A stretch of 64,000 bases of DNA from Candidatus Altimarinota bacterium (lineage in GTDB: Bacteria > Patescibacteriota > Gracilibacteria > BD1-5 > UBA2023). The notes under the pieces are model-generated. The model made no database searches, was not told the origin of the DNA, and was given only the letters and a program-made list of their open reading frames with translations. The first letter of the stretch is position 1, and every line of letters begins with the position of its first letter. Below, in pieces: positions 1 through 64,000 of this stretch. The DNA lies in the NCBI GenBank assembly GCA_031386685.1, contig JANNCQ010000085.1, positions 8,241 through 72,240 on the forward strand, written 5' to 3'. A program made the translations under genes and the position numbers.

Positions 1-715
1 GATGACAATCGAGATTTCATTTTGTCTGTACAACTGCTACTTGGCCATTCTTATGGATAGATAAGAAATGATGAGCTTGTGCTGCTGCTACTATAGCATC
101 TGTAGCGATTTTCAGATTCCCATCTGTTCCATTTTTAAATCAGAGTGGTGCTGAAATTCCAGATGCAAGTTCTCTATGTACTTGGCTTTCTGTTGTTCTT
201 GCTCAAATAGCTCACCATGATATAAGATCTCCAATATATTGAGGACTGATCATATCAAGAAATTCTGTAGCAGCAGGAATACCAGTTCTGTTAATCTCTA
301 TGAGAAGTTGTCGTGCTATACGTAGCCCTTCTTCTATTCGAAATGTTCAATCGAGATAAGGGTCATTTATCAGTCATTTCCATCCCACCGTAGTTCGAGG
401 CTTTTCAAAATAGACTCTCATAATAATCTCAAGTGTATCATTGTACTTTTTCCTTTCCTCAGCAAGAAGTCTCGCGTATTCAATTGCTGTCCCAGGATTG
501 TGTATCGAACAAGGTCATACTATAGTTACTAATCGATCATCATTACCATGAATAATATCGCTTGTGGATCTCCGAGACTTTCGTATCATTGATTCAACTG
601 GGGATCCTGTAATGGGAAAGAATCAAATTAAATCTTGGGGGGGAGGTAATGGTTTAACGCTTTGAATTCTTTCATCATCAGTAATTCATTTGCTATTAGA
701 AAGAACAGTTCCCAT
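1..715 (-). CDS. aroG: 3-deoxy-7-phosphoheptulonate (DAHP) synthase, class I AroF/G/H type; C-terminus runs off the window
   Basis: ATG at 715-713. With TGA=Gly the translation reads ...IVGPCSIHNP...[20 protein letters not shown]...[21 protein letters not shown]...LGFKNGTDG. Several in-frame TGA fall on conserved Gly. Confidence 0.85.
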
Positions 716-727
716 AAAGATATTATT

Positions 728-766
728 AAAAAAAATAAAAACTCCTCCAGTTTTCGCTGAAGGAGA
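728..766 (-). terminator. candidate rho-independent terminator downstream of the AI-2E transporter gene
   Basis: Minus strand hairpin ctccttcag-cgaaaa-ctggaggag (742-765) followed by a U-run (plus-strand A-run 728-741). Confidence 0.45.
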
Positions 767-926
767 GGTGTATGATTTCTTGGAATAGTTCTAAAACTCC
801 ATAAATCTCCCCTTCAGTAAATTCTGAAAGTAGAAATAAAAATAGAAGAATGTAGAGCTATGAATTTTTTGCATATTCGAAGATATAAGTTGATATTATA
901 TTTTCTCGAAGTTTTGTCAAAAGTTT

Positions 927-2162
927 TTATACTTTTTCTTTAATTATTCTTTTTGAAATGGGTTTTTTCGGGAGAGATTTTTCAGCGGAAGATATTTTTC
1001 GAGCCCTTGTTTTGATGGGATCTTTCCAAATCTTCTTATCTTGATATTCCGTATATATGACTTTCATGACTCATGCTATCGGTACCGCCAATATAATTCC
1101 GAGTATCCCACCGAGGCTCGCTCATGCTATCATGATGATAAATACAAAAAGAGGTGATATATCGAGAGCTTTGCTCATAACATATGGAACGAGAAAGTCA
1201 TTCTCAATACGCTGAATTATGAGATACAGGAGAGTTATCGCGAGAGCAATCTCCCATGATATACCGAGACCGATGATTGCTGCAGGTATGAGGGCTATAA
1301 GAGGTCATATATACGGTATGAATTCCATAATACCGCCTATAAGTGCGAGTGAGAATTTATTTTCGATCTGAAATGGTTCTATCTGAAGGAGATTTTGTAT
1401 GAATTGGGTATTGAGCGTGAACTCTAAAAGAGAGAGTCAGAGATACGTAACGACAAATATACTGATAGAAAGGATGAGCGTAGCTTTTATCCAAGAATTA
1501 CAGACGTTTTGCACTGATCGGTAGTGACTTTTTAGATATACATCAGCGTGAGCTGGTGCTAGGCTGAGAAGGAAACTCCCGATCTTGCGTCTTTCGAGAA
1601 CCATCAGAAATGTCATGATTGCAATAATTGCCCAATTGGCTACTACTCCACCTACTGCGCTCACTATCGAGATACTACCAGTCGTGAGAGATCATATCTG
1701 TGTGGTAACTACAGATTGTATATTTCCAGCATTTTGCTTGATGATGTCGAGAGTATGCTCTATATTTGCTTCTCAGAAGATGAGACGAATAGATTTTTCT
1801 ATATAAGGATGGAAGTGAAATCCGGATAATCCTTCACGAAGATAGACAGATTGTGCAGTGTTCACCCAGCTTGTGATAATATTGACAGTATTCGTCACAT
1901 AGTCGATGACGATCGGGATCAACGTCCCAATGACAATACTTCAAAGAAAGAATATGATAATATATACTCATAAAAGACTCATCCACGCTGGGATACCATA
2001 TTTCTCACCTTTTTCTGCAAGAGGAGTTATAAGAATAGTGATAAACCCTGCAATAATAACAATCAGAAGCAGGGATGAGAGCGTATAAACTATATAAAGA
2101 ATTCCAACAATGACCAACAGAACTCCTATTTTTTTCAGCCAAAGAGTGATTTCACTATTCAT
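927..2162 (-). CDS. AI-2E family transporter (PerM/YhhT, UPF0118) membrane protein
   Basis: Fragments 1437..1664 and 1968..2162 are in the same frame. The merged polytopic protein of about 411 aa contains ...GGIMEFIPYIGPLIA...IQRIENDFLVPYVMSKAL... Stop TAA at 927-929. Confidence 0.8.
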
Positions 2163-2221
2163 AGTAGGAATGATTATATAATTCTATTATAAGAATATTC
2201 TCCATTTTTCAATGGAGAATA

Positions 2222-2752
2222 TTAATTGAGTTCTTCTATTTTTTTATCGAGGAGATCAATCATGTGACTAAGGAACTCTTTGAGAATCAGTTTTTTTGTT
2301 TCACTCATTTTCAGTCTTCCTGTTTTCTCGAGGCGAGTTTCCAGAGACATACGTATTTTTTTATACGCTTCTTGGCGATCATTTTTGTCAGGTATAGATT
2401 TCGCAAGCTTGATACTTAAATCTTTAATGATCCTTGATCACTGAGCTTTATAAGATTCGATAATATATGTATTAATATCTTGTTTGAGTTTTTGTTCTTC
2501 TTGCACCTCCTCTGCTGTTTTTACGAATTCAGTATCGATAGAGCCACTTTTGGAATCTCATTTTTCATCATTTGTATTTTTCGTATTCTTTATCGTTTCA
2601 TCAGACTCAATTGGCGTTTGGGTAAGATTGGATCAGCTTTCATCGAGTTGCTTTCCACTTCATGATATAGCGTATGATGAATGAACTATGAAAAAAAATC
2701 CCAAAAGACTCAGGACGATCTTTCCCAAAAATATGTAAGTGTTTGAATGCAT
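2222..2752 (-). CDS. hypothetical protein with N-terminal membrane anchor/signal and a charged coiled-coil-like C-terminus
   Basis: ATG 2752, TAA 2222-2224, 177 codons open under table 25 (4 TGA). Starts MHSNTYIFLGKIVLSLLGFFFIV. No recognisable family. Confidence 0.55.
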
Positions 2753-4557: not shown

Positions 4558-7305
4558 CTATTTTCAGTGACAACTTTTATACTTCTTCCCGCTACCACAC
4601 GGACAAGAGTCATTACGCCCGATTCCTGCATAGAGATTCTTTGAAGCTTCATTTGTCTGAACGATGCGGACTCTGGGTTCCATGAGGAGAGAATCCTCGG
4701 AATAATTTGTATGATTCATATGGCTAGCTGCAATGACCGCACCAGTATCGAATCAGGCATTTGCATTTTCTGCATATTTCGAAAGAAGGGTCTCCTCGAG
4801 ATCCACTTCATCTATAGATTCACGTGGTTTTGCAGTGAGAAGTCATTTTATGACTCTGAGTCCAACGGTATTAATGAGTATGACGAATTTATCATAAGCA
4901 CGCTCTTTATAGATAATCAGAGGATTCTTCTGGGCATATCCCTCGAAGGCAACTTCTTCACGCAGGTGAGCCATACTATCAATATGATTCATCCAGAGCT
5001 CATCTATGGCTGCAAGTGTAAGTCGTCTTTCAAACTCTGCAAACTCTTCTTCTGTTCCAGTATCTCTGAGAATCTCAATTTTTCCTGATAAAAGCGATAC
5101 AACACGTACTTTCGCCGCAATATAGTCACTGACATTTGAGAGATTATCGAGTGAAATAACTGTAGATTCTGCAAATTCGTTGATTGACTCGATGATCCGA
5201 GTTTTTTCATCTGAATCAAAAAAAGCTTCATCTCATATACTCAGATCCACTATGCGCTCAACTTCTCACTTGAGCATCTCGAGGACTTCCATATGAATAT
5301 CTGCTCCAGAGAGTATTTTTGCTCGTCGTGAGTATATAGCAAGACGATGATGATTGAGGACATCATCATACTCTAGAATATGTTTTCGTATATCGAAGTT
5401 TCGACCTTCTACTTGTTTTTGGATAGTAGTTATATTTTTCATGAGCATCTTACTCTCCACAAGAGGATCTCATTCTGGATGTGACTCAAAACTCGCTAGT
5501 ATGCTAAAAAGTTTATTTCCTCAAAATATGCGCATGATATCATCTTGAGGAGAGAGCATAAACTGAGAAAGTCCAGGATCTCATTGGCGACCAGAGCGAC
5601 CACGCAGCTGATTGTCTATTCGTCGTGTTTCATGCTTTTCTGTTCAGAGAACGTAGAGTCCTCCAAGAGGATACTCTTGGATTCATGCAGTACCTTGGAG
5701 TTTTACGGTTCATGTGAGAGTCCGTACACGCTCATCAATCTTGATATCTGTACCACGTCCAGCCATATTTGTAGCTATAGTGACTGCTCAGTATTGTCAG
5801 GCTGATGCTATTATCTCTGCCTCTCGGGAGTCTTGTTTTGCATTGAGTACCTGGTGAGGGACTCACTCTTTTTCGAGAAGTGCAGAGAGATATTCACTTT
5901 TTGCGACTGATACGGTACCTACTAGGATAGGCTGACCTTTCTCATGAAGTGCTGCTATGAGACGTACGAGATAGGCGAATTTTCATTTCTCACTTCGAAA
6001 AAGGACATCCCCACGATCGATACGTTTGAGGGGTTTATTCGTGGGTATACTTATCACCTCGAGGTGATATATTTTATAGAACTCTTCTTCTTCAGTTTTT
6101 GCTGTACCGGTCATGCCGGCAAGTTTCGGGTACAGACGGAAGTAATTCTGGAATGTGATAGAGGCGAGTGTACGAGATTCTTGCTGGATAGTTACTGATT
6201 CCTTTGCCTCTATCGCTTGATGGAGTCAGTCAGAATATCTTCGGCCAGGGAGTACTCGTCCTGTATGTTCATCAATAATGAGAATTTCATCATTTCTGAC
6301 AAGATAATCTATATCTCTTTTGTATACTGCTGAAGCTTTGAGGGAGTTTTCCACATGATGAAGATCATTGAAGTGTTGACTCACATAGATATTATCGACG
6401 CCGAGATAGGATTCGAGTTTTTTGATACCTTCCTCTGTGAGGGTAGCAGCTCTCTGTTTCTCATCAATTTTATAGTCAGTATTCTCCTCGAGAGATCGTG
6501 CGAATGCGGCAAATCGCACATATTTCGTCGTCGGTTCGCTATCTGGCGCTGATATGATAAGTGGAGTCCGTGCTTCATCTATGAGGATAGAGTCGACTTC
6601 ATCGACGATAGCGAGCCATTTCTTTCCCATAGTCTGTCGCTCACTGCGTATAGCCATATTATCTCTCAGGTAGTCAAATCCAAGTTCGTTATTCGTCGCA
6701 TAGACGATATCGCAGGCATAGGCATTTTTTTTCTGTTCAAAATCCTGTCCATGAGTGATCACTCCTGTACTTAGGCCGAGAGCAGTATAGATGATACCCA
6801 TCTCAGCGGCATCTCGACGAGCAAGATAGTCATTTACGGTCACGATATGGACACTTGCGGGTACAAGAGAATTCAGGTAAGCTGCTATCGTCGCGACGAG
6901 AGTTTTTCATTCTCATGTCCGCATTTCTGCAATATTTCCTTCATGCAGTGTCATAGCTCCAATGATCTGTACATCGTAGGGTATCATAGTCCACTCCACC
7001 ATATTCCCACCTCCTATATCGAAGCTCTGTCCATATATGAGTTCACATGCACGACGATGAAGAGCAAAAGCCTCATATTTTATCGATTCGAGAATTTCCT
7101 TTGCCTTCTTCCGATCATCCACATCATCCATATTCAGTCACTCAAAAAGAGACTGGAATTGATGAGTTTTTGCTTGTACTTGATCTATTGTAGAAATTTC
7201 ATCACGAAAGTGAGATTCGATGGATTTTACTTTTTCGAGATCTTTTTGGTATGATTTGAGCTTTTTGGTGCTTGGGTCTCAGAATATAAGGGAAATAAGA
7301 TTCAT
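4558..7305 (-). CDS. secA: preprotein translocase ATPase SecA
   Basis: [15 protein letters not shown]... Walker A reads MRTGEGKTLVAT, with both Gly encoded by TGA (6913-6915, 6907-6909). C-terminal Zn finger [13 protein letters not shown]. 916 codons, fragments 5266.., 6226.., 6913.. all in one frame. Stop TAG at 4558-4560. Confidence 0.95.
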
Positions 7306-9783: not shown

Positions 9784-11886
<2,103 letters not shown>

Positions 11887-14730: not shown

Positions 14731-15993
14731 TTATGAGTTCTCCTTAGCAGCAGCATATACTTCTTCGAGTGAAGTGCGACCATTAAGTGCCTTTATGATA
14801 CCATCCTGTTCAAGAGATATCATGCCATCTGTGATTGCTGCCTCATTAATGATGGTGGCACTGGCTCAATCAATGATGAGTTTTTTTACACTCGTGGTAA
14901 TTTCGAGAATTTCATAAATACCGACTCGACCTTTATATCCTATGTTATCGCATTCTGTACAACCGACAGATTCGTAGAAGATAGGATTTCAGAGTATCTC
15001 AGTTGGTATGCGAGAGAGAAGCTCTTCTTTAGCAGTTCGTTTTAGTGCTTTTTCTACACGTCACTTAAGGTGAGGATCAAGACTATTCATTGGTATAGCT
15101 TTCTTGCAGTGTTGGCACAGCTTACGTATAAGACGCTGTGCGATGATGGCATTAATCGAAGCAGGCAAGAGAAATGCTGGGATTCCCATATTGAGTATTC
15201 GAGTGAGTGTTTCAGCAGCAGAATTCGTATGGATGGTTGATACCACGAGGTGACCCGTAAGAGCAGCTTCAATTGCGACATTAATAGTTTCATGATCTCG
15301 GATTTCTCATACCATGATGATATCAGGATCTTGACGAAGAGCAGTACGAAGACCAAAAGCAAAGTTATATCAGATATCTGGAAACATCTGTGATTGATTG
15401 AGTCAGTCGATCTGACTTTCTACTGGATCCTCTAGGGTCATTATATTCACATCAGGCTTATTGAGATTCGAAAGACAAGAGTAGAGCGTAGTAGACTTAC
15501 CTGAACCTGTTGGTCAAGATGTCATAATAATTCCATTTGGGAGAGCAATAGCTTTTTCGAGAAGATCTTTATTATGTCATTCTATACCGAGCTCAAAAAG
15601 GTTCGGAATTTTTTTACTTTTATCAACGATACGCATCACTATCTTTTCTCAACGAACAGTTGGAAGAGTTGAGACACGAAGGTCGAGTGCTTTATTATTT
15701 ATTATTGTAGAGAGACGACCATCTTGGGGGACTCGAGCCTCATCAATTTTGAGGTTCGACATAATCTTAAATCGTGCTACGACTTGCTGATGGAGAAATG
15801 TTTGATATTCCAGTATTTCTCGTAATTCACCATCAATACGATAACGCAAACGTACAATATTCGCCAATGGTTCGATATGAATATCTGATGAACCCATTTC
15901 TACTGCTCCGATAATCATAAGATCACAGATTTGAGAAATATTTTCACCCTTATATATTTGTTCTTTGAGAAGTTCGATGGACGTATTGGGCAT
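14731..15993 (-). CDS. pilB: GspE/PilB-family type IV pilus / type II secretion ATPase (short form, no N-terminal domain)
   Basis: 421 codons. ...SDIHIEP...RLRYRIDG...; Walker [18 protein letters not shown] with the first Gly = TGA at 15514-15516; ...[23 protein letters not shown]... Stop TAA at 14731-14733. Confidence 0.9.
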
Positions 15994-21254: not shown

Positions 21255-22511
21255 CTAATTCTTCGGCATTTTATTGCGGAGGAATGCCGGTACATCATAG
21301 TCATTCTCAGGAGGAGTCGATGGCTGTGGCATGCTTGTCTGTCCTCCACTCCGACTCTGAGAGAATCATCCTGCTTGATGTTGAGGAGCACTCTTCTGGA
21401 AGATGCTACTTGATCCAAATCCTCCACGAGACATAGATCCGAGGTGAGCATTGGTCTCTTCAGAGAATCCAGTCGCGATCACCGTGACTTTGATTTCACC
21501 CGTATACTTCTCGTCGATAGACGTACCGAAGATGATATTTGCATTTGGGTCGCACGACTCAGTGATCATACGAGCTGCTTCATCGATCTCGAACATTGAG
21601 AGATCTGTGCCTCCCGTGATCGAGAGGAGGAGTCCTTTTGCTCCATCGATCGAGAGTTCGAGGAGGGGAGACTCTATCGCACCACGAGCCGCTTCGATCG
21701 CACGGTTCTCACCACTTCAATATCCAATACCCATGAGGGCAGATCCAGCATTCTCCATGATCGATCTCACATCCGCGAAGTCCACATTGATGAGTCCTGG
21801 GTGGGTGATGAGGTCAGATACGCCTTGTACACCTTGCTTGAGAATCTCATCTGCTACATGGAATGCTTCAAGGAGTGGAGTCTTCTTATCGATGATCGAG
21901 AGGATCTTATCGTTCGGGATGGTGATGAGGGTATCGACTTTTTCTCTGAGCTTCTCGAATCCTTCGAAAGCCTGACTACTACGACGCTGCCCTTCGAATG
22001 CGAAAGGTTTCGTCACGACTCATACGACGAGCGCACCGAGTGACTTCGCGATCTCAGCGATCACTGGAGCGGCTCCTGTACCAGTACCACCTCCGAGTCC
22101 ACACGTGATGAAGACCATGTCTGCACCCGTGAGGACTTGCTTGATCTCTTCGCTTGACTCTTCTGCTGCCTTTTTGCCTGTCTCAGGATTTGCTCACGCA
22201 CCCAGACCACGAGTCGTCGCACGTCCGATATTGATACGAGTAGGAGCCTTCGATGTGAAGAGTGCCTGTGCATCAGTGTTGATCGCGATGAACTCTATCC
22301 CTTCTATACCTGATTCGATCATACGATTGACGGCATTATTTCCGCCACCTCATACACCGACGACTTTGATATTCGCGATAGGCGATATATATCCGTTTAC
22401 ATTCACTTCTACATGACTCTGTGGAGTCATAGAGGGTTGGGGAGCAGAGCTCGGCATATTCGTGCGGAGAAGTTTTTTGAGTCGATCTTCACTTGGATTG
22501 GTACTAGACAT
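21255..22511 (-). CDS. ftsZ: cell division GTPase FtsZ
   Basis: ...[17 protein letters not shown] (one Gly = TGA at 22350-22352)...[15 protein letters not shown]...[10 protein letters not shown]...; C-terminal [11 protein letters not shown]. Stop TAG at 21255-21257. Confidence 0.95.
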
Positions 22512-22550: not shown

Positions 22551-23789
22551 CTAGGGGATGAATTTTTTGAACAGTGCTTTGAGAGAAGAGAGGCTTTTTC
22601 CAGGGGAGAAACTAAACTTAAATGGTTTTTTCGCAGTACCATACTTTTGAGCGAGCAGGAGTGTCCCTACTACGGTCGTATATATAGGATCAGCGATAGA
22701 TGTACCACTGATACCATCGACTTGCTCGGGTACTCAGATACTTGCGGGAAGTCTGAGGTAATCTCGAGCAAGATCTGCGAGTCATCGCATCTTCGCACCT
22801 CCTCATGTGAGGATAGCTCACTCAGGAAGCATACCATCTCGACCGACACTTTTGAGTTCCATAGTGATATGATGAAATATTTCTTCATATCGTGCACGGA
22901 TTATATCATTCATGAATTTTCTCGATATTGCGATCGTATCTATTCCTGAGAGTTTGGCGAGATCGATCTCTTCATCATAGTCATTGGCCATGCCATCACC
23001 GAAGTTCAGGTCTCCATATTCGAGCTTGAGTCTCTCTGCAGTATCTATGGAAATTCGAAGACCGAGAGCGAGATCACTCGTCACATGTTCTCCGCCGATA
23101 GGGATGACTGCTGCGTAGATGAGAGCTCCTTCTTCATAGACAGCCACATTGGTCGCACTCGATCCTATATCTACTGCTACGACACCGAGCTCACGCTGAC
23201 GACGAGAGAGCATAGCTTCTCCTGCTGCGAGAATATTTGGATAGGTATCCATGATCTCTACACCGACATCGTGGACTCATTTCTGGATATTGGAGAGGGT
23301 ATTGGCACTGATAGATATGATGTGACTGCGTACTTCAAGCTTCTTTCCACTCATGCCGACGGGATTCTTGATACCACTTTCGAGATCGAGAGAGAAACTC
23401 TCGGGTATTACTTTCAGTATCGTACGATTCATGAGATCGACTCCATTTTGGCTAATGTCGAGTGCGCGATTCACATCGTCTTCAGAGACATCGAGTCCTG
23501 CTACAGCGACGATACCAGATTTGCGAGTAATATCGATATGGATCCCAGACACTCCGAGACAGATATGCGAAGCCTGCTCTCCGGTCATACGCTCAGCATC
23601 ACCTAGAGCGATATCGAGGTCTGCCTTGAATTGCTCCATATCGAGTATATTCCCTTTTCGGATACCACGAGACTCTGACACTCAGATTCCGAGGACTCTG
23701 AGTTTTTTCTCATCAGTCCACTCTCCGATGACGGCTTTTATCTTTGAGCTGCCTATATCTATGGCTACGAGCTGTTCTCCAGATACCAT
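22551..23789 (-). CDS. ftsA: cell division protein FtsA
   Basis: MVSGEQLVAIDIGSSKIKAVIGE...VVAVDIGSSATNVAVY...AILTGGGAKMRGLADLA... 413 codons. Stop TAG at 22551-22553. Confidence 0.9.
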
Positions 23790-39997: not shown

Positions 39998-39999
39998 AT

Positions 40000-40503: not shown

Positions 40504-40562
40504 AAAGATTTTGCTTTCAAAGGTATATAGTGATATATTTCTTATAGATTTATCATATTCTC

Positions 40563-41434: not shown

Positions 41435-41462
41435 TTGGCAATCTTCATATTTTCTCTATAAT
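41435..41462 (+). promoter_or_regulatory. sigma70-like promoter giving a near-leaderless transcript
   Basis: TTGGCA (41435-41440), 16-nt spacer, TATAAT (41457-41462). ATG at 41469. Confidence 0.6.
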
Positions 41463-41468
41463 CTGACT

Positions 41469-41804: not shown

Positions 41805-41831
41805 TCAAATCATATTACTCCTGAAATAATC

Positions 41832-42959: not shown

Positions 42960-42968
42960 TTTGATTCC

Positions 42969-44423: not shown

Positions 44424-44430
44424 AACACTT

Positions 44431-45756
44431 ATGGCAAAACTCCAAAATCGTAGCCTCTTCATCTTCCGTCAGGATCTTCGTACTCATGATAATACTGCGC
44501 TCATCGAAGCGATGAGAAATTCTAAAGAAGTATTTCCAATTTTTATCCATGATACTCGTGCGATAGAGGACTTCGGTATGGATGATCCTCGATTTGGCTT
44601 CATCCGAGAAGCACTTGAGTCGATCGATACTGAGCTTCAGAAAGTATGATGAAGACTGACCGTATACCGAGGAAATCCAGATGATATCGTATGAGAGATT
44701 ATAGAAAAATATCAGATTAATGCGATCTATCTGAATCGGTCATATTCTCCAAGAGGGAAGGAGCGAGATGAGGGTATTATGAATCTTTGTGACTCGAGTT
44801 GAGTCAGTTTTCATTCATTTCAAGACTTTCTCATGGTAGAGCCAGAGGAGTGTGAACAACGTAAGGTATTCACCCCATATTCGATGCTCTGGAAGAAATT
44901 TATCATAGCGCATCCTGAGAGAATTGAGATTCATGCATTCGATGGAACTCTCGCAAAATGGTATATTCCAAATGATCGACGAGAAATCGGAGATACCATC
45001 ACAGTACCACATCATCCACTCTGGACGATGCAGTTCGGTCATGAGCGCTTAGAGAGAGACTTTTCTCACTATGTTGATCTTCGCAATCTTCCAGCTATCG
45101 ATGGTTCTACACGACTCTCTCCGTATATCCGATTTGGGATATTCTCGGTACGTGAGATATATGAGAAAGTGAGAGAAAATCCGACACTCCTCTCTGAGAT
45201 TATTTGGCGAGAGTTTTGGTATCAGATAGCGTATTATTTTCCATTCACCTACTCTCTCGAATTCCAGGAACGTCGTCGGACGATCGAGTGGGATAGAGAT
45301 GAGTCGAGCTATGAGTGGGAGATGTTCCAAAAATGAAAAACGTGATATCCTCTCGTCGATGCTGCAATACGTCAACTTATACAGACCAATTGGATGCACA
45401 ATCGACTCCGTATGGTGGTAGCCTCATTCCTCACGAAGAACCTCGGGGTCGACTGGCGAATGGGAGAGAAATGGTTCCGGAAATATCTCATCGACTATGA
45501 TGAAGCAGTGAACTTCGGGAACTGGCAGTGGAGTGCAAGTGTGGGGGCTGATCCGAAGCCTGTGAGAATCTTCAATCCGCTCCTCCAATCAGAAAGATTC
45601 GATACAGAATGTAAATTCATCAAAAAATACCTTCCAGAACTAGAAGGTATTGATCCAAAAAGAATTCATACTCTTGATCTGAAGGGAGTCTATAACGCTC
45701 CAGTGGTCGATCAGAAAGAGAGTGCTGCGAAGGCGAGAGAGAGATATAGGGGATAG
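44431..45756 (+). CDS. phr: deoxyribodipyrimidine photolyase (class I CPD / DASH-like)
   Basis: LFIFRQDLRTHDNTAL...STRLSPYIRFGIFSVREI...WREFWYQ...[36 protein letters not shown]...NFGNWQWSAS...RIFNP. Three fragments in one frame. Stop TAG at 45754-45756. Confidence 0.9.
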
Positions 45757-45848: not shown

Positions 45849-46178
45849 TTAATACTTTCTCTTCTTCGTTTTCGATGGAGTCTTCTTTTCTATCGTCTCT
45901 CTCGCAACTCGCAGAAGCATATCTCGATCACCTTCGAGCCATTCAGGATTTACGGCTGCTGTATTCTTGCTTCAAGGGTAAGCCCTAGTTTCTCTATCTT
46001 CGAAATATTCGATCGTCTCAGGGAAAGTCTTGAAAAACAGCGTATTATCGCAGACGAGGGCAAACATTCGATCTCCCGAGTATATCCCATATTCTCCAAA
46101 CATCGCTTTTGTATGAAGATATTGTATTCATTCAAGGCATTCGAGGAAGTACATGAGAGTATCTTTAGAGGTTGCCAT
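45849..46178 (-). CDS. TfoX N-terminal domain protein
   Basis: MATSKDTLMYFLECLEG...KAMFGEYGIYSGDRMFALVCDNTLFFK...AYPGSKN... 110 codons. Confidence 0.7.
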
Positions 46179-46587
46179 GATTTTTCTGATTATAGTGTTT
46201 GAGGAATTCTTGAATATTTGGATATGTTTTTAACTTTTTTGCTTCTTCAAGAGTAAAAAATCCTATCTCCATACATTCTTCAGAAGAAGTAAATTCGAAA
46301 TCATTTACTCTTGTTTCATAGAGCACATTTGCGATATTCCATCACTTCAGATTCGTACTTGTATAAAAATAACTTGGTACTTGAGAGATAGAAACGACTT
46401 CAAGTCACATTTCTTCCTTGATTTCACGTTTGAGACATTCTTGAAGATTTTCACCATAGTCCACTCATCCTCCAGGAAGTTCCCAGAGTTCATTCTCTTC
46501 TTTCACCAAGAGAAAGCTTCACTCATCATTATGAATAAGTGCTTTTACAGAGAGCCGATAGAAACAAGGTGGGATAGTATACTCCAT
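46165..46587 (-). CDS. Nudix hydrolase
   Basis: Nudix box GGGVDYGENLQECLKREIKEEMGLEV. 141 codons. The stop overlaps the tfoX start. Confidence 0.75.
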
Positions 46588-50498: not shown

Positions 50499-50975
50499 CT
50501 ATTCTTCGACTTCATCTTCACCGACGATTTTCTCGAGCATGTCGATGATGAAGTCATAGGTCTCGATATTGGGCTTCATGGAGAGGATATCATCGACTTC
50601 GAACCATCTGTAGTCATGGATCTCTTCTTTTTGAATCGTTTTTATCATATCTGACGTTTCCATAAGGAATACATATTCCGTACGGGATTTATCATGTCCT
50701 TCTTTATCGGTATAAGTGAGATCATAGATAGCGATAGGAAGGGGATGATGGATGAGCTTCTTCCCTCTATGGTGGAGGATTTCTTCACGATCGATCTCGA
50801 AAAACTTCGCCTGAAGTCCGAATTCTTCTCCTATCTCACGTATCATCGCATCGTGGAGTGATTCTCCAGATTCTACATGACCACCTGGGAGTACCCAGGA
50901 AGTATCGGGCTTATGCTGGGTGAGGAGGATCTGACCTTCAGGATTGAAGAGGAATGCGCGAACAACTTGTTTCAT
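50499..50975 (-). CDS. Nudix hydrolase
   Basis: ...WVLPGGHVESGESLHDAMIREIGEEFGL... Intact in the standard code. Stop TAG. Confidence 0.85.
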   Translation of the reverse strand: MKQVVRAFLFNPEGQILLTQHKPDTSWVLPGGHVESGESLHDAMIREIGEEFGLQAKFFEIDREEILHHRGKKLIHHPLPIAIYDLTYTDKEGHDKSRTEYVFLMETSDMIKTIQKEEIHDYRWFEVDDILSMKPNIETYDFIIDMLEKIVGEDEVEE

Positions 50976-52978: not shown

Positions 52979-55627
52979 TTATGGAAGCTGATAGAATCCT
53001 CATCGGGAATACACGGTTCCAAGGTCCCTTGAGAGTATAGCCGGAAAAAGTATATCACACTCTTTTATAAGTGCTCAAAATGATATCTTATTTGCACAAG
53101 GACATTGTTCGCATATAGGTGTTGCTATTATGAGTCATTGAGTTTTTGCTTTTTCGAGTATACAGGCATTATTTTCGAGCCTTCCGAGAATTCCTATAAT
53201 CGTAGGACATCCATTGTCTTTTATTGTGCCTGATACAGTAGGACAAAGATCGTTCGCATCAGCTATCCCATCGCCGTCAGTATCTTTTGTCGCGATCCTC
53301 ACCGTCATACTTGACTCTGCTTTCTGTCCTTTGGCATCAGTCACAGATACTACTACAGTATATGTCCCTGGAGTATTAAATATATGAGAAGGAGATGATC
53401 CCCCTATGCTTGTAGGTGTTCCATCTCAGAAGTTCCAGCTATACGAGAGTGGTCACACTCAGAGAGCATAGCTCGAAAAATCTATACTTCCTCCTGCTCC
53501 TATGCTCAGAGTACTTGCTCCTATAGTTACTGAAGGAGGAAGAGTCCCTCCTATACCAATACCTCATCATCCACCTCCACCTGCTCCACCTCCACCACTA
53601 CTTCCACCTCCACCACTACTTCCTCCTCAACCAGATACTCATCCGCCATTTCCACCACCAGAACTCCCACCCCCTCCACCTGTTCCTCCCCCACCACTAC
53701 TTCCTCCTCCTGTACCTCATCCACTTCCATTCCCATTTCCTCCGACAGGAGGATTCCCCGCAAGAGTACTTCCATCTCAGATAGAGATCGTCGTAGAAGG
53801 ATGACTGAGGATAGTTCCACTTACTCGGTCTCGTATGAGAAGATCGACATTCCAGTTTCCTACTCCGAGGCTTCCTGATGGAAGTGTCCCCCCATTTCCA
53901 CTTATGACCCTTCCAGTCACGCTATCTACTGCAGTCCATGTATAAGTATAGTCTCCGGGATCTGAAGTACGAGGAGTGAGATTAAAACTCTGTCCACTAC
54001 TAAAACTACTTCATGGGAGTACTTTTCAGTCGGAACCTATGACTTGTATAGTACTTCAGAGAGTAGCAGTATTTCATCCAGTATTACCAGTATTTCCTCA
54101 TCAGATTATTCCAGGAAGTCCAGGATTTGTATTTATTCCAGGTTCGATTCATTTTGTATAATTATTGATATTGATTACTGGACATCACTTATTAGTCGAA
54201 GATCCAGAAATATTGGGACAGAGGTCATCTTTGTCCGTGACGCCATCGCCATCACTATCCTTATCTCCTGTCACTTCGATGATCACTTTTGTTTGTACGG
54301 TTTGACCATCTTTGTCTATGAGAGTCACACTTACTGTATATATCCCTGGAGTAGTATAGGAGTGACTTTTATCAGTTATATCTTTCGTATTGTTTCATGT
54401 AAGGACAGATGACTGTCTGATCCCATCTCAAAAATCCCACATATACGTCAGAGGTCATGACCCGAGAGCAAAACTCGAAAAGTCTATCGACCCACCTACA
54501 CCGACACTAAGCTTATTGACAGAAAGCATGATGGATGGATAGATTTTTCCATCGATAGAGCTATTTTTTTTATCACCACCATTACCTATAGGATCTATAC
54601 TTCATCATAGGAGTGACTTTCCATCAGTGATCAATATTGTCGTCGTCGGGGAGCTCACTCATCGATTGGTCGCTCTGTCAATGATATCGAGTTCTATACT
54701 CCAATCTCATGCTCAAAGTGTGCTCGATAATAGGCTCGGATCTGTCCCAGTGACGACTCGATTCGTCGCTCTATCTATAGCTGTCCACTCATATCGATAG
54801 TTACTTATTTCTGCGTCCATGAGCGGTACAATTCGAAATTTTTCTCCTAAAGCGAATACGCTCTTATTTATACGGTTTCCACTTTCTCAGAGAATGACGA
54901 GAGAGCTTGCGAGAGTATTTTCTATACCAGCTTTGGCACACTGATTATAATCAAACATTTTTGCCGCCATGATCACAAATTCTCCCCTCGTGATAGACTC
55001 ATCCGGGGCTATTGTATTATTTGCTTTCAATATGAGAATCCCTGCATTTATACCCTTTACAGCATATCCATACCAATAATCAGAGATATCATTTATAGTG
55101 ATGGTTTTTTTGAGTGTCTTATTGAGATCTTCATTCCAGAGATTTGCTTGACGAAGGAGCATCGCTGCTGCCTCCATACGTGTAGTCTTATTGTTTTGAC
55201 AGAAGGGAGTACTCTGGAATCTTCCTCCATCCTGACACGATACATTCCCGGTAGTATCGAGGGTATATCACTGCACGATCTTCTTATCGGCAGCATAGGC
55301 GATACAATAGTATACTGGATGAGTTTTACTCAGATCGACAAAAGGAGATATCGCATATGAAGCAATATCTCATGGAGTGGGAGTGATACATCGCCTACAG
55401 GATACACTTACAGAGAGTCCTACGAAGTCACCACGATCAATCGTATCTTCAGGTCGAAAAAGATGAGATCCGTCATCATAGAGTATATAGTTTTTATAGA
55501 GGGTTTCTATAGAAGAATAATATGGACTCGTCGTAGTGATATCAGTATAGGGGAGTGCTCCTGCAGAGACACTTCATCGTCCCAAAATAGAGAAAAAAAG
55601 AACGATGAAAAGGAGAAACTTTTTCAT
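52979..55627 (-). CDS. large secreted surface protein: signal peptide, two SLH-like repeats, PKD domains, thrombospondin-type-3-like Ca-binding repeats, Gly/Ser-rich linker
   Basis: An 883-codon frame was scanned codon by codon with no TAA/TAG. MKKFLLFIVLFFSILG...; ITRGEFVIMAAKMF; DKDSDGDGVTDKDDLCP and DTDGDGIADANDLCP; YSWNFGDGT (Gly = TGA at 53426-53428)...GTYTVVVSVTD. Confidence 0.8.
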
Positions 55628-55717: not shown

Positions 55718-57514
55718 CTACATCTCGCTTGGCATCTGTATGCCGAGAAGATCGAGTGATTTTTCGAGAGTCTTTGCAGTTTTTTCTACGAGTGCGAGGC
55801 GAAATGCTTTGAGATTTTGATCTACTTCTTCGAGGATCTTGGGTGTATGTACATAAAAGCTATTGAATTCTCAGGCAAGATCATAGGCATAGAGTGCGAG
55901 ATGATGGGGCTTATAGGTATGAGCGGTCACATCGAGAGCTTCCTCAAAATGTGAGAGTACTTGCACGAGAGTTTTATCATAAGATGTAAGGATCAGACCT
56001 TCATCATTACGAGTTATATCTGTTCATCCAGCAGTGCTGATCTTTCTCGCTCTTACAAATGCATATTGTATGTATGGTCATGAGTGTCATTCGAAGTTTA
56101 GTGCTTTATCCCAATCGAATACCACATCTTTCTCACGATCTTGTGTCAGATAAGAGTATTTGATAGCACCTATGGTGATTGCTTTTATATCAGCTTCCGA
56201 AAGACTCATTTCTCATATTCTTCACTTCTCTTCGAGAAGCTTTTTCGTACGCTCGAATCCTTCTTCGAGAAGTGTTTCGAGGAATATCACGGTTCCATGG
56301 CGTGTCGACATTGCTCCTTCTTTGAGCTTGATGAAGCCATTATAAGCATGGAATATCTCGACTTCGTGAGTGAGCTCTGGCCATGCTGCTTTCGCAATCC
56401 AGAAAGCCTGTTTCAGATGAAGTTGCTGACGCACATCGACTGAGTAGATGATCTTCGATGGATGCCATCCATTCGTGAGGCGATACTTGATCGCTGCGAG
56501 ATCACTCGTGAGATAGAGTCCTGTACCGTCTTTTTTCTGGAGGATACATGAGGGGAGCTTCGACTCTTCCGGAAATACTACCCCGACACTCATATCTTCA
56601 CCATTCGAGGCGATAGAGTTATCGGTGGCTATCCCTTTCTCTATGAGTTCTTTCACGATATCTTTCATAGTATACTCGAGATCTGGGTAGTCTTCATCAT
56701 TCGGGCGAGGAAGTCAGATGCCTTCATAGAAACTCTCACCGATGTTATATGTCGCATGAACATTGAGGATATCGAGCTTCTTTTCTATTTCTGTTATGGA
56801 AATACTGGTAATCTTTTTCCAGAGTTCACCACTTTCCTTTTCTCCTAGAGAGAGTTGCTTGAATTCTTCACGACATTGATTATCAAAAACATCTTTTCAT
56901 TCTGACTTTTCTGTCTCAATTTGCTTTGTTGCTTTTTGATAGAGGGAAAGAAGATATTCAACTCATTTTTGATCAATCTGATTTATGAAGGATTCGATAT
57001 TATTATTGTTTGAGAGCTTTCCTGCAGCAATAATTCTTCAGAAAATTCCTCCCCAATCACCAAAATGGGAATCTCCGATCACGCGATACCCAAGATGACG
57101 ATATACATTACAGATGACTTGCCCGATTGATGGAGTACATATGTGTGCTATATGAAGGGGTTTGCCGGCATTTGCCCCAATATAGTCCACTATGATACTC
57201 GTATCTTGGCTTTGGCGTATCTGTGGCTCTTCGAGTTCTGAGAAAAGTCAGATCCAGACGATATCAGTGAGGAAGAAATTCACATATCCACCCGTCGCAC
57301 TCGTACTTCGAAATATCTCACTATACTTCGCGAGTTCAGTACTAATAGACTCCGCGATGACGGTAGGCACGATCTTCGCATCTTTCGCGAGAGGGAAGAC
57401 ATTGATACAGTATTCTCCGAGTTCTGGTTTTGGTGCAGGAGTGATCTCAGGTATGAATTCGCTCGAATAGAGAGAGCTTATCACTTCTTGGATAATGGTT
57501 TGGATATTTTGCAT
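55718..57514 (-). CDS. argS: arginine--tRNA ligase
   Basis: N-terminus MQNIQTIIQEV... Catalytic and anticodon-binding regions ...VDVRQQLHLKQAFWIAKA...GTVIFLETLLEE...YIQYAFVRARKI...; ends ...PSEM. 599 codons. Confidence 0.9.
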
Positions 57515-57558: not shown

Positions 57559-58086
57559 TTATTTTGTGAGCTCAGTGAGTATTATTTTGGTGATCTCCTC
57601 TGTACTCTCTCTAGAAGTATCAAATATAAGGGAATTATCAGGAAAGAAGAAAGGTTTTTTCATATTTTCTCGAAAAAGATATTCATCAGTCACACTTATC
57701 CGAGTGCTTCACTCAGCTTTTGCTTGTATCACTCGTTCTCTGAATCTCTCGATACGGATCTCTTCAGGGCACTGGAGTTCTATCGTGATTATTTTATACC
57801 CATTGGTTATAGCTTTTTGGCAGAGGTCAGTATACTGCGCCTCTTCACGGAAGAAGCTATCAGTGATACAGGGGATATTTTTCTCGAAGAGGACTCATAA
57901 GAATCAAGACAGGATATCTCGAACTGTCTCGATATCTTTATCTCTATGATATCCAGAGAGATTCCATTTGATACTATCGAAGCCGATATGATAGTATCCT
58001 GGGAGATACTTCTGGAGTTCTTTTCGGAGAGTCGACTTCCCAGAACAGGAGTGACCTGTGATGATAATTATATAGGGATGATCCAT
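57559..58086 (-). CDS. P-loop NTPase / AAA-family kinase-like protein
   Basis: MDHPYIIIITGHSCSGKSTLRKEL (Walker A). 176 codons through two TGA. Confidence 0.6.
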
Positions 58087-58098
58087 AAGTATGAAAAG

Positions 58099-59607
58099 TT
58101 ATACTTTTTCTACTCGCCACTTTCCGCCTGCTTCATCGATCATCTTCCATCATCGGCCCTGGAGATCGTCACGTATCCTATCTGCCTCTTCCCAATTCTT
58201 CGCTATTTTTGCATCGAGTCGGTCGAGTGCAAGCTTCGTGATATCTTCTGGGATGATTTCACTATTTTCGAGAAGGGAAAAATCAAATATTGCGACGACT
58301 TCATTCCAGCTTTTCAAGAGGTCTACGAGTGATTTCGCTTCTTCGAAGGAGAATATCTCTTCATCGATCCCACTATTGACATAGCTCTGGAATTCGAATA
58401 TGATCGTCATCGCAGAGTTCGTATCGAAGTCATCTTCGAGGTATTCGATGAAGTCCTGCATGAATGCTTGTTGATTGTCGCGGAATTCACGAGAGATATC
58501 ATGGAACTTCATCTTTCCGCGAGCATTTCTCTCACTGCTCGATTCTGGAAGACTCACGATATATCGACCGAGTCGCTTCATCATCTCATCGAGTCAGATA
58601 ATAGTATTGATTGCTCCATCGAGACGACTATAAGTGAAATTGAAATTTTCAGCGTATTTATTCTGAAGGGCCATGAGTCGGAATCATCTACAAATATTTT
58701 TTTCGTTTATAGACTTTCAGTGTTTGATGATATCGCGGAGTGTATAGAAGTTGTTTGCACTTTTTGCCATCTTCTTATTATCCACGAGCAAATGACCTCC
58801 ATGAAGCCAGTATTTCGCAAAAGTTTTCCCTGTATAGGCTTCTGTTTGAGCAATCTCGTTCTGGTGGTGGGGGAATATGAGATCCACTCCTCCCATATGG
58901 ATATCGATCTGATCACCGAAAAAATGACGATTACAGGCACTACATTCGATGTGCCACCCTGGTCTTCATTCGATGCTCTTTTTTTCACCATTGAGATTTA
59001 TACTAATACTCCACTTATTCTCCCCGTCAGTTTCTTTATCGTATGCCTTCCAGAGAGCGAAGTCGGCGACTTGATCTTTATCATATTCATCATTATCGAT
59101 GCGGACACTCGATATCATCCCCTTGAAGTCGAGATGTGCGAGATTGCCATACTTTTTGAACTTCGCTACACTATAGTATATAGATCCATCTTCTGCAAGG
59201 TAGGCGTATCATTTCTTTATGAGTCCATCGATGATCTCACCCATGTCCTCTATGAGCTCGGAGATAGGCTTAATATTATCAGCAGGGATGATACAAAGCT
59301 TACTACAGTCCTCGAGGAATGCTTCTGTATAAAATACGGTGAATTCTTTGAGACTCTTTCCTGACTTTTGACTATCTCTTATGGTTTTATCATCGATATC
59401 GGTTATACACATGGTACTTTTTGCCTTATATCCGAGAAATCGCATACTCCGTACCACGAAATCATCCATAAGGTAATTACGAAGATTACCTATGTGTGCG
59501 TAATTATATGGCGTTGGCCCACAATAGTATATTTTGACTTCGTCTTGTTTGAGGGGCTTGAAGGGCTCGAGTTCGCGAGTGAGGGTATTAAATAGGTGAA
59601 GGGACAT
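58099..59607 (-). CDS. cysS: cysteine--tRNA ligase
   Basis: [16 protein letters not shown]...[17 protein letters not shown]...GWHIECSA...KMAKSANNF. Fragments 58150.. and 59209.. are in one frame. Start at ATG 59607. Confidence 0.9.
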
Positions 59608-59736
59608 AGAAATTGATAGGATAATATAACCCACTATATATAAAAAAAATCAAAAATCGACAAATTACCAAAAATATAATTGACTATATATATATGCATG
59701 TATAATGATAATCCTTCAACAAATCTATTGAAAACC

Positions 59737-60804: not shown

Positions 60805-61252
60805 GGGGATGATATAGGATTCGATAAGGAGAATCGTATGGTCTCTCGTGCTGTCTCGGGGCAGTCAGCCTCGTCATCAAATGACAAACAATAGATGCAA
60901 ATCTTAAAACACTTCGAGTTTCAGCTCTTACTGCACTTAAAAATGCAATGAGTGTTCGTACTCCTTCACTTATTGCTGCCTAATCGCTCAATAAGGTAGC
61001 CTTGTCCTAGACATGAGTGCCATATGGCCTGCTACAACCTTTATTTCCCAAAACTGATAGGGAAATGTCGTATTATCAGTCTCATTCTGTAGCTTTCTCG
61101 ATAAGGTAAAGAATCTGAGTATACGAAATCGGCTCTTCTACTTTTTGTCATTTTTCATGTCCTAGAAAGAGTATCTAAAAATGAATCATAGACAGGAATA
61201 CACGAAGATAATACCTCTTTACACGCGGGGGCGGTGCCCGCCATCTCCACCA
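60805..61252 (+). ncRNA. ssrA: tmRNA (SsrA)
   Basis: 5' GGGGAUGAUAUAGGAUUCGAU pairs with the 3' ...CAUCUCC-ACCA (7-bp acceptor stem with G3:U). T-arm GCGGG/CCCGC. Tag frame GCA AAU ... AUU GCU GCC UAA at 60897-60983. TATAAT at 60789-60794. Confidence 0.8.
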
Positions 61253-61994: not shown

Positions 61995-61999
61995 AAAAT

Positions 62000-62722
62000 A
62001 TGCAAAAATATCATACACCCAAACGTATCCTTTTGAAGCTTTCCTGAGAAGCTCTCCAATGAGAGCAATGATATGGTATTGATCCGAAATTTCTCTCTTT
62101 TCTTGCAAAGAAAATAGTACACCTGGTCAAAGTCGAGAAACTCGAAATAGTCATTGTTGTGTGAGGAGGCAATATTTTCCGAGGCATAGAGCTCGAGCAG
62201 TGAGGATTCGATCGAGTGACAGGCGACTATATGGGAATGATGGGGACGATCATCAATGGTCTTGCTGTATGAGAAGCAATAGAAGATGAGTGAGTCGATG
62301 TCCGAGTGACGAGTGCCATACCAACTCAGCGAGTAGCAGAAGAATTCATCCGCCGAAGAGCCCTCAGGCACATCGAGAAGGGAAGAGTCGTGATATGTGT
62401 GGGAGGCACAGGGAATCCTTATTTCTCTACTGATTCTTGTGCTGTACTGAGGGCCCTCGAACTCGACTGTGATGTCGTCGTGAAAGCGACGAAAGTCGAT
62501 GGGATCTATGATAAAGATCCGAAGAAGCATACTGATGCCGTAAGGCATGACTCTCTGTATCTCCACGAAGTCATCCAGAGAGATATCCGAGTCATGGATC
62601 AGGCAGCTATAGCTCTTGCTCATGATGAGGGTATGCCGATATATGTCTGTAAGATCGAAGATATTGATCAGATATGCGGAGAAGATATCATCGGGACATT
62701 TGTCCATGCAAAGAAGCTCTAA
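62000..62722 (+). CDS. pyrH: UMP kinase
   Basis: ...RILLKLSGEAL...IVIVVGGGNIFRG...DYMGMMGTIINGLA...VVICVGGTGNPYFSTD...KATKVDGIYDKDP. 241 codons, several Gly = TGA. Confidence 0.9.
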
Positions 62723-62726
62723 TAAT

Positions 62727-62758
62727 AAAAAAGACTCAAATATAGTTGAGTCTTTTTT
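62727..62758. terminator. bidirectional rho-independent terminator between convergent pyrH and the PKD-protein gene
   Basis: agactcaa-atatag-ttgagtct flanked by an A-run upstream and a T-run downstream. Confidence 0.7.
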
Positions 62759-62769
62759 ATGGGATAATT

Positions 62770-64000
62770 TTAGAGGGTTTTTGCCACTTCGTAATTTTTT
62801 TTCTTACGTTGTTCTGTGCCATCACTATAGATGATGGTAAGTTCTATACTATAGATTCCAGGTTTTTCGTATGTATGAGATGTCGCATATCCTCGAGATA
62901 CCGGAGTATTGTCTCAGAAGTTCCATATATACTCTTCTACTTGTCCGGTGGTTCCATTTGCTTCGAAGTCTATAGGATTTCCGATGATTCATGGCTGAAT
63001 ACTGGGTGCGAAATCTATCGTTTTTACTTGATCCTTAAGAACGATAGTTTTTTTGAGTGAAGTTTTCTCACCGTTTTCTGCTACGATCGTGAGAGTGATA
63101 GTCTTCTCTCATGCAGTATTATAGGTATACTGCTGTATTGAGTCTCACTCTGCTGGAGTACGTTTTTCTCCGAAATCAAAAATAAATTTCTTGATCTCGC
63201 CCTCTTCTGACTCTGAGAGGGAAGCATCGATGGTTGCTAGAGTCGGTACATAGTCAGAAGTGGTCTTTATCGTCATACGGGGCATAAGACTCCTTCTTTC
63301 TATATCGACGATGACTGTTTCTTTGAGGGTTTCTTCGATATCTTTCTCGCCAGGGACACTTTTATTAAATGTATATATTGCTTCTATCGTATATCGAAGA
63401 GGTTGATTAAATTCTATTGATATTTTTTCTCCACGACGTTCTTCTGGAGTTTTTCCATTCGATATTTTCCAGAGGACATCTTTGAGTAAGTATCCTGGAT
63501 TTCCAGAGACAATATCTCGAGCATCAAATGTGAGGCTTTCGGGAGGTATAATAGCATTTTTGAGAATATATGCCTTAAGGCTGTTATCATAGGTTGAGTC
63601 ATCATTCATGAGGGTTCAGGCATCATTGAGGACTTTTATAGATTTGATAATTGTGAGAGGTTCATTCGATACGACATCGGTCTCAAATGAATACTTCTCC
63701 CCATTTGCCATTTCTATAGTTGCTTTGAGGTTCTTCCGGCCATAGCTTGTAAAACTATAATTACACGTATCGGAGTTCCCTCTACATATAATATTTTGAT
63801 TATCGAGGAGCCATTCTATATTGACTATGCCATTCTGGTTGAGAGTCACTCAAGAGAGGGAGAAACGAAAAGTTTTTTTATCACTTGCATCCTGTATTGC
63901 AGTGATTGATCATTCCACTGATTTACTATTTTTTACTTCTAAAAGAAAGAGTCGATCACAGCCGGTTCCGTCAAATATTTTGAGACAGAGTCACTGAGGT
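62770..64000 (-). CDS. PKD-domain surface protein, C-terminal part (N-terminus beyond the window)
   Basis: Fragments 63145.. and 63616.. are in one frame, which stays open to position 64000. ...EEYIWNFGDNTPVSRGYATSHTYEKPGIYSIELTI... Stop TAA at 62770-62772. Confidence 0.75.

Follow-up and report, generated by a model that had tools for sequence, protein, structure and literature searches.

The analysed DNA, referred to below as the window (positions 1..64000, 64,000 nucleotides), is a chromosome segment of a Gracilibacteria-type bacterium in whose genes TGA codons stand in frame. Complete genes, 53 in number, were picked by codon-usage score; a greedy longest-ORF set was dropped in favour of this one, as several antisense ORFs had been picked. 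The 53 genes contain 318 in-frame TGA codons among 17,480 codons, or approximately 18 per 1000 codons, and end in TAA (37 genes) or TAG (16 genes). The genes considered below are listed in Table 1. A PKD domain was also found in the paralogue adjoining the 882-aa surface protein. A spurious ORF of 549 aa (57946-59595) lies antisense to cysS.

Table 1. Genes of the window with in-frame TGA codons. Motif comparisons give the window first, with TGA as X, and E. coli second.
Gene or product	Coordinates	Strand	In-frame TGA	TGA at glycine positions
DAHP synthase, truncated by the window edge	2..715	-	9	6 of 8 aligned TGA on Gly of E. coli AroG: IV-G-PCSIH (IVXPCSIH / VIGPCSIH), GWK-G-LINDP (GWKXLINDP / GWKGLINDP), SW-G-AI-G-AR, P-x-G-FKNG, T-x-G-N
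secA, 915 codons	4558..7305	-	20	6913-6915 and 6907-6909, the two Walker A glycines of MRT-G-E-G-KT (MRTXEXKT / MRTGEGKT)
ligA (NAD-dependent DNA ligase)	9784..11886	+	8	10189-10191, G of the adenylation motif KxDG (KYDX / KLDG)
pilB/hofB-type secretion ATPase	14731..15993	-	9	15514-15516, first G of Walker A G-PTGSGKS (SXPTGSG / TGPTGSG)
ftsZ	21255..22511	-	5	22350-22352, within GV-G-GGGNNAV (GVXGGGNN / GVGGGGGN); another TGA within GLGA-G-ANPE
ftsA	22551..23789	-	6	5 on E. coli Gly
Nudix hydrolase	46165..46587	-		Nudix-box G, ...REIKEEM-(TGA)-L
PKD and Gly-rich surface protein, 882 aa	52979..55627	-	32	53426-53428, G of the PKD motif WNF-G-DG; second PKD copy WDF-(TGA)-DG
argS	55718..57514	-	11	
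cysS	58099..59634	-	6	
pyrH (UMP kinase)	62000..62722	+	7	5 on E. coli Gly

With TAA, TAG and TGA all taken as stops, the window holds two ORFs of at least 300 aa (longest 399), and ORFs of at least 150 aa cover 26% of it. With TAA and TAG as the only stops, the number rises to 38 (longest 921) and the coverage to 92%; releasing TAG or TAA gives 4 and 3 ORFs of at least 300 aa, respectively. In the standard code nearly every gene is broken at TGA into pieces that lie in one frame, just as the initial annotation, made from the letters of the window, had described for the conserved genes. Glycine makes up 5.4% of the 53-gene set when TGA is left out and 7.25% when it is counted, and UGA accounts for approximately 25% of all glycine codons. 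For tryptophan, TGG by itself gives 1.05%; counting TGA as tryptophan too would raise this to 2.9%.

Proteins of the window were compared with those of E. coli in local alignments in which TGA was masked as X, so that the protein searches were unbiased. TGA falls on an E. coli glycine at 65 of 124 residue-aligned positions (background Gly 7.4%, binomial p = 7e-40), and on tryptophan at none of the 124. When six more codons were masked, glycine was found at 59 of 119 TGA positions, gap-aligned ones included. TGG falls on E. coli tryptophan at 33 of 69 positions (17 of 48 with TGG masked) and GGN on glycine at 257 of 445. Approximately 48% of the residue-aligned TGA codons face a residue other than glycine in E. 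coli, versus 39% of the GGN codons (Fisher p = 0.10); as the two mismatch rates resemble each other, that of TGA is taken as ordinary divergence. In the SecA of B. subtilis (PDB 1tf2), 11 of the 15 aligned TGA positions are glycine.

TGA is present at motif glycines of SecA, LigA, PilB, FtsZ, AroG and PyrH. The six coordinates of single triplets in Table 1 had been named in the initial annotation, and each proved to be an in-frame TGA of the gene strand at an invariant glycine; its two examples from DAHP synthase (IV-G-PCSIH and GWK-G-LINDP) are likewise borne out. The tabulation of residues facing TGA that it had proposed was run against E. coli and gave the counts above, and its statement that TGG is still tryptophan and GGN still glycine agrees with the alignments to E. 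coli and to the relatives. The consensus of the Nudix box is GX5EX7REUXEEXGU. TGA on the glycine of this box, also claimed at the outset, was seen in the hydrolase listed in Table 1, where the paralogue at 50499-50975 reads REIGEEFGL.

A SecA search of the GTDB species set returned, as the best 80 loci, Candidatus Gracilibacteria or Patescibacteria MAGs throughout, some of them labelled Peribacteria, with identities of 53-90%. The top match, with 90% identity at most, is a Candidatus Gracilibacteria MAG. In nearly all of these 80 loci in-frame TGA codons stand on glycine columns. Codon-level alignments were made for 23 gene families with up to 78 Gracilibacteria relatives. At the TGA columns of the window the relatives have GGN in 56.6%, TGA in 20.1%, and TGG and TGY in 0.0% each; conversely, TGA makes up 11.8% of the relatives' codons at GGN columns of the window and 0.1% at TGG columns. 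UGA is read through in essentially every gene of the window, at glycine positions; among orthologues of the clade UGA and GGN replace each other freely, which UGA and UGG never do. In secA, TGA represents 33% of the glycine codons in the window versus a median of 11-13% in relatives of similar GC, a share that could conceivably point to a lineage-specific expansion of the reassigned codon. In the alignments to E. coli, B. subtilis and the relatives, TGA behaves as a codon for glycine and not for tryptophan, cysteine or selenocysteine.

The remaining 61 codons have their standard meaning by majority in the tables from E. coli and the relatives. An anomaly of AGC in the small E. coli table was rejected, AGC being serine by majority in the relatives. 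In the extended code of Absconditabacteria, CGA and CGG are tryptophan in addition to UGA being glycine; if that code were used here, table 25 would mistranslate the window. CGG has indeed been predicted by Codetta to be tryptophan in some Gracilibacteria (PMC8629427). In the window, however, masked CGA falls on E. coli arginine at 38 of 85 positions and masked CGG at 10 of 26, with tryptophan absent from the residues listed for either codon, and in the relatives the two align to arginine in 75% and 66%, respectively. Both codons are also common here (120 and 30 per 10,000 codons), whereas they are rare in reassigned lineages. Since CGA and CGG stay arginine, the extra reassignment is absent, and an extended code in this DNA is extremely improbable.

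A reading of UGA as tryptophan, the table 4 code found in Mycoplasmatales and in a number of insect endosymbionts, has in its favour that ORF lengths cannot separate tables 4 and 25, TGA being a sense codon in both, and that gene callers often pick table 4 for such contigs (PMC3812714). It is refuted by the alignments, in which UGA never falls on tryptophan: if TGA behaved like TGG, a count of 0 out of 124 against 33 out of 69 would arise with a chance of approximately 1e-39. The exchange of TGA with TGG among the relatives (0.0-0.1%) and the implausible tryptophan content that table 4 implies point the same way, and hardly any credence is left for this reading. Recoding to selenocysteine predicts sparse UGA codons at Cys/Sec positions and was rejected, with TGA at the density given above and TGY at 0.0% in the relatives. 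That the TGA codons are real stops, in pseudogenes or through assembly errors, is favoured by the look of the standard-code translation and by nothing more. One stop codon of the three is affected and the pieces are always in frame; TGA stands on conserved glycines of essential genes (secA, ftsZ, ligA and aminoacyl-tRNA synthetases); dozens of relatives, each assembled independently, have TGA or GGN in the same columns; and an independent Logan assembly is identical across 46.6-52.3 kb. These observations refute the reading of the TGA codons as real stops, whose probability is practically nil.

An ambiguous UGA, mainly glycine and at some sites also stop or mistranslated, would find some backing in proteomics of BD1-5, in which the highest stringency left 40 glycine peptides at UGA versus single ones with Trp, Ala, Asp or Lys (PMC4032931). 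The distribution of TGA in the window speaks against it. A 3'-terminal excess of TGA was sought along the genes and none was found: the codons are evenly spread, and 8 genes have a TGA within the last 16 codons versus approximately 13.5 expected. In secA, codon 914 is a TGA at a conserved glycine (CH-G-K; E. coli CHGR), one codon ahead of the TAG stop. Together with the reported absence of prfB from all BD1-5 genomes examined (PMC6851277), this makes an ambiguous codon very unlikely. The ending of all merged genes in TAA or TAG, another point of the initial annotation, was confirmed, although it follows by construction from taking TGA as sense; the lack of a terminal excess is the independent check. 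UAA and UAG keep their role as stops, and UGA is without stop function. The observation of in-frame TGA codons was confirmed and its interpretation as glycine supported, all testable parts of the claim having held.

ARAGORN found no tRNA gene in the 64-kb window; in 81 related secA loci (1.38 Mb) it found 9 tRNAs in all, none of them with anticodon UCA. When RF1 and RF2 of E. coli were compared by BLAST with every ORF of the window and of the relatives' loci (1.38 Mb), neither factor was found. The decoder expected with table 25 is a tRNA-Gly(UCA) with G1:C72, C2:G71, G3:C70 and U73. A pattern scan of metagenomes for tRNA(UCA), in which the Gly-type 3' end CGCT was required, returned mostly tRNA-Glu(UUC), because TTCAA fits its anticodon loop as well, plus a dozen or so genes for tRNA(UCA). 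A number of these are located on TGA-recoded contigs, some of which are phage-like, with terminase and portal neighbours. The tRNA(UCA) contigs have no gene in common with the window or its relatives, and so show the mechanism in nature, free of any tie to the source genome. Published work detected prfB in none of the BD1-5 genomes, with prfA present (PMC6851277); the expected decoder of UGA is tRNA-Gly(UCA), and RF2 occurs in those Gracilibacteria that are without this tRNA (PMC8629427, PMC3812714). Going by this work on the clade rather than by the window, a dedicated tRNA-Gly with anticodon UCA would decode UGA, and RF2 (prfB) would have been lost, leaving RF1 alone to terminate at UAA and UAG. 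There is a slim chance that the lineage decodes UGA off this textbook mechanism, by a non-canonical tRNA or with RF2 kept and a context-dependent choice between glycine and stop.

The consequences for annotation are direct. Pipelines that use table 11 split nearly every gene of the window, and table 4 would place tryptophan at approximately 2% of the residues, catalytic glycines included. A single public copy turned up, the identical 7-kb Logan contig SRR20217212_11264426, and there the genes are annotated in fragments with code 11, MurG as a 94-aa piece and an ABC transporter as one of 211 aa; the warning in the initial annotation that a standard-code annotation of this DNA is wrong applies to it. 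An exact look-up in a collection of 15 billion proteins gave no match for the full-length PyrH in its glycine and tryptophan translations or for the full-length FtsZ in its glycine translation. With two stop codons only, long spurious antisense ORFs arise (up to 695 aa in the window), examples being 41373-43460 on the minus strand and 57946-59595 on the plus strand, so that gene calling needs a coding-potential model besides the right table. The biological gain is small, since UGA as glycine is known in the clade, tabled and backed by proteomics; the practical weight lies in annotation.

Reading UGA as glycine is a trait of Gracilibacteria and SR1 known since 2012-2013; it has an official number, table 25. 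This code of SR1 and Gracilibacteria was reportedly described by Wrighton in 2012, Campbell and Rinke in 2013, and Hanke in 2014. It was predicted for the clade and then confirmed by proteomics in 2014, in which 97 peptides were unique to the glycine translation, 3 to the tryptophan translation and 0 to the reading as stop (PMC4032931). The reading of UGA in the window is thus an already known phenomenon. Table 4 of Mycoplasma/Spiroplasma and insect endosymbionts shares with the window the sense reading of UGA, the stops UAA and UAG and the look of the ORF lengths, but its lineages typically read UGA by tRNA-Trp(UCA) and not by an extra tRNA-Gly (PMC3812714), and in the window UGA is never on tryptophan. 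The code of Absconditabacteria (SR1) according to Codetta (Shulgina and Eddy 2021, PMC8629427) shares UGA as glycine; it differs in CGA and CGG as tryptophan, which are frequent in the window and stand on arginine. Against table 25 itself, the Candidate Division SR1 and Gracilibacteria code, no difference was found: conserved genes have in-frame UGA, which stands where glycine is expected, the stops are UAA and UAG, UGG is tryptophan and the other codons are standard. No feature of the window contradicts this code. The SecA loci place the source within Gracilibacteria/Absconditabacteria, as first proposed, and the same matches, together with CGA and CGG as arginine, narrow it to Gracilibacteria, whose MAGs are the nearest relatives. 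It is therefore close to certain that the window is chromosomal DNA of Candidatus Gracilibacteria (BD1-5/GN02) that follows NCBI table 25, with UGA as a fifth glycine codon, UAA and UAG as the sole stops and UGG as tryptophan.

The window comprises 64,000 bases with a G+C content of 40% and no N. Under the three standard stops it contains two ORFs of at least 300 aa (longest 399 aa) and with TGA as sense 38 (longest 921 aa), compared with four when TAG and three when TAA is dropped from the stop set. ORFs of at least 150 aa cover 26% of the window in the standard code versus 92% with TGA as sense. Only the release of TGA lengthens the ORFs, and the fragmentation is therefore TGA-specific and window-wide. 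The 17,480 codons of the 53 complete genes include 318 in-frame TGA, and the genes terminate with TAA (37) or TAG (16), as the initial annotation had stated for its merged genes. TGA positions are evenly distributed across gene deciles. A TGA within the last 16 codons was observed in eight genes, with about 13.5 expected from density; this lack of a 3' excess thus gives no sign of ORFs overrunning a genuine TGA stop. In secA, a TGA lies one codon ahead of the TAG stop, opposite the Gly of E. coli ...CHGR.

Circularity was avoided by rendering every TGA as X ahead of each comparison. A tblastn search of all window proteins against 14 orthologue-bearing segments of the E. coli K-12 chromosome gave matches for 20 of them. 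The 139 covered TGA positions were opposite Gly (65), gaps (15), Ala (13), Pro (7), Glu (6) and scattered other residues, and none was opposite Trp. Thus 65 of the 124 residue-aligned TGA fall on Gly, against a Gly background of 7.4% in the aligned E. coli sequence (p = 7e-40). GGN and TGG retain their usual meanings, being opposite Gly in 257/445 and opposite Trp in 33/69 cases, respectively; the Gly-match rates of TGA and GGN do not differ significantly (Fisher p = 0.10). The six TGA positions singled out earlier are all in frame and opposite the expected invariant glycines (Table). Against B. subtilis SecA (PDB 1tf2), 11 of 15 aligned TGA correspond to Gly. The amino acid composition points the same way: Gly content rises from 5.4% to a typical 7.25% with TGA counted as Gly, and Trp content from 1.05% to 2.9% if it is counted as Trp.

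A SecA protein scan with one genome per GTDB species returned 80 loci, all from Candidatus Gracilibacteria or Patescibacteria MAGs (some labeled Peribacteria) at 53-90% identity, which bears out the proposed Gracilibacteria-type source. With a best identity of 90%, the source species is therefore not among the GTDB species representatives. For 23 window genes, orthologues from these loci were aligned at the protein level, TGA being kept as X, and the codons were then assigned to the aligned columns. In window TGA columns the relatives use TGA in 20.1%, GGN in 56.6%, and TGG and TGY in 0.0% each; in GGN columns the values are 11.8%, 68.2%, 0.0% and 0.3%, and in TGG columns 0.1%, 0.7%, 74.5% and 0.1%. 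TGA thus behaves, in these 23 families, as a synonym of GGN across the clade. Among 79 secA genes (78 relatives and the window), TGA use declines with rising G+C (Spearman -0.66). The TGA share of secA Gly codons is 73% below 30% G+C and 2% above 45%, ranging from 0 to about 87% among relatives; those at 55% G+C retain one internal TGA, on a Gly column. The window secA, at 33%, lies above the 11-13% median of relatives of similar G+C.

Other readings of the in-frame TGA were weighed against these data. Tryptophan (table 4) is rejected, with no Trp opposite TGA in E. coli and TGG at 0.0% in the relatives' TGA columns, and selenocysteine was likewise tested and rejected, TGY being at 0.0% there. 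Pseudogenes or assembly errors were also tested and rejected as the source. CGA and CGG are reported to be read as Trp in Absconditabacteria and perhaps some Gracilibacteria (PMC8629427), and were therefore masked and tested as well. Both are common in the window and align with Arg (CGA 38/85, CGG 10/26), and the residues listed opposite them do not include Trp; this extended code is rejected. No further reassignment emerged from the 64-codon tables for E. coli or for the relatives. Judged from these alignments, plain table 25 is the correct one for the window.

The read-through of UGA and its meaning of glycine are the steps that the window itself demonstrates. Its decoding by a dedicated tRNA-Gly(UCA), with prfB absent, would follow the literature: such a tRNA is described for SR1 and Gracilibacteria (PMC3812714, PMC8629427), prfB was undetected in any BD1-5 genome while prfA is present (PMC6851277), and proteomics confirms Gly at UGA, with 97 unique peptides for the Gly translation, 3 for Trp and 0 for stop (PMC4032931). 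The 64-kb window contains no tRNA genes, and none of the nine tRNAs in the relatives' loci has the anticodon UCA. No class-I release factor was found in the window or the relatives' secA loci, a result that carries no information on RF2 loss. A pattern scan found tRNA(UCA) genes on strongly TGA-recoded metagenome contigs (e.g., L172 and L180), with a GCG...CGCU acceptor end that the search pattern imposed; no link of these contigs to the window's lineage was established. Several are phage-like. In contigs L180, L192 and L187 the tRNA(UCA), with its Gly-type acceptor end, adjoins terminase- and portal-like ORFs or lies inside tRNA arrays; such contigs probably represent phages that infect recoded hosts and bring their own UGA decoder.

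A tmRNA gene was identified with Rfam and missed by ARAGORN under every genetic-code option. Its T-arm reads CGCGGG-GGCGGTG-CCCGC in place of the TTCRANY loop, and the CCA end is encoded. The putative tag begins with the GCA at 60897 and, at ANLKTLRVSALTALKNAMSVRTPSLIAA before the TAA, is unusually long.

Selection by length gave a first gene set with oddly composed long ORFs. Scored by a codon-usage log-likelihood, for which 17 genes of obvious identity served as the training set, these proved to lie antisense to real genes; the longest-ORF caller had chosen them, and the score chose the true strand. Such ORFs arise because only TAA and TAG act as stops. The refined set holds 53 complete genes and two truncated at the window edges. 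Pfam and E. coli comparisons identified DAHP synthase, AI-2E transporter, TruB, signal peptidase I, SecA, trigger factor, LigA, L25, PilC, PilB, DinG-like exonuclease/helicase, FtsZ, FtsA, MiaB, cyclophilin, YbaB, four photolyase/cryptochrome-family proteins, D-Ala-D-Ala dipeptidase, ABC exporter, MurG, DprA, ArgRS, CysRS, PyrH, several Nudix hydrolases and PKD-domain surface proteins.

The four photolyase-family genes lie within 9 kb (36992-45756), which for a CPR bacterium with a small genome is a large commitment to light-dependent repair or sensing. An island of low coding score and atypical composition (27411-29345) may be mobile or defence-related; as it uses TGA as sense, any transfer would therefore have originated within the recoded clade. 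The two large PKD-domain proteins are probably located at the cell surface. At least three Nudix hydrolase genes are present.

Table. Features of the window and TGA-containing motifs (X, masked TGA; motifs as window / E. coli)
Feature	Position	Strand	Remarks
SecA motif	6907-6909, 6913-6915		MRTXEXKT / MRTGEGKT
LigA motif	10189-10191		KYDX / KLDG
PilB motif	15514-15516		SXPTGSG / TGPTGSG
FtsZ motif	22350-22352		GVXGGGNN / GVGGGGGN
PKD motif	53426-53428
DAHP synthase motifs			IVXPCSIH / VIGPCSIH; GWKXLINDP / GWKGLINDP
DUF4160/DUF2442 pair	27411-27983		island
DUF4238 protein	27993-28871		island; 8 TGA
HNH endonuclease	28851-29345		island; 6 TGA
Nudix hydrolase	32799-33377	+
Nudix hydrolase	46165-46587	-
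Nudix hydrolase	50499-50975	-
Photolyase/cryptochrome family	36992-38266	+	FAD_binding_7
Photolyase/cryptochrome family	38276-39997	+	DPRP, PF04244
Flavin-reductase-like	40000-40503	+	within photolyase cluster
Photolyase/cryptochrome family	41832-42959	+	FAD_binding_7
Photolyase/cryptochrome family	44431-45756	+	33% identity to E. coli Phr
PKD-domain protein	52979-55627	-	long Gly/Ser/Asn low-complexity linker; duplicated internal modules; GGN 110, TGA 32
PKD-domain protein	62770-63999	-
tmRNA	60805-61252	+	RF00023, 59.7 bits (gathering score 47)
Antisense ORF, 396 aa	34559-35749	-	opposite block of small genes
Antisense ORF, 695 aa	41373-43460	-	opposite two photolyase-family genes
Antisense ORF, 549 aa	57946-59595	+	opposite cysS

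One public copy was found, a 7-kb Logan contig (L013, SRR20217212) identical to the window at about 46.6-52.3 kb. Its genes are called as code 11 fragments (e.g., MurG 94 aa, ABC exporter 211 aa), in line with the warning that standard-code annotation of this DNA is wrong; on it, one more ORF with a Nudix domain is called in the interval from the Nudix gene at 50499-50975 to murG. Full-length PyrH (Gly and Trp translations) and FtsZ (Gly translation) are absent from a 15-billion-protein collection, in which, by these two look-ups, no full-length proteins of the source organism were found. In practice, annotation should use table 25, and the antisense ORFs arising from a two-stop code should be removed.

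The observation that UGA stands for Gly is confirmed, and the interpretation given to it in the initial annotation is supported. The phenomenon is already known in this clade; the sole novelty appears to be a species without a correctly translated public record. The window shows every defining feature of NCBI table 25 that was open to testing, and belongs to the clade for which that table was defined.
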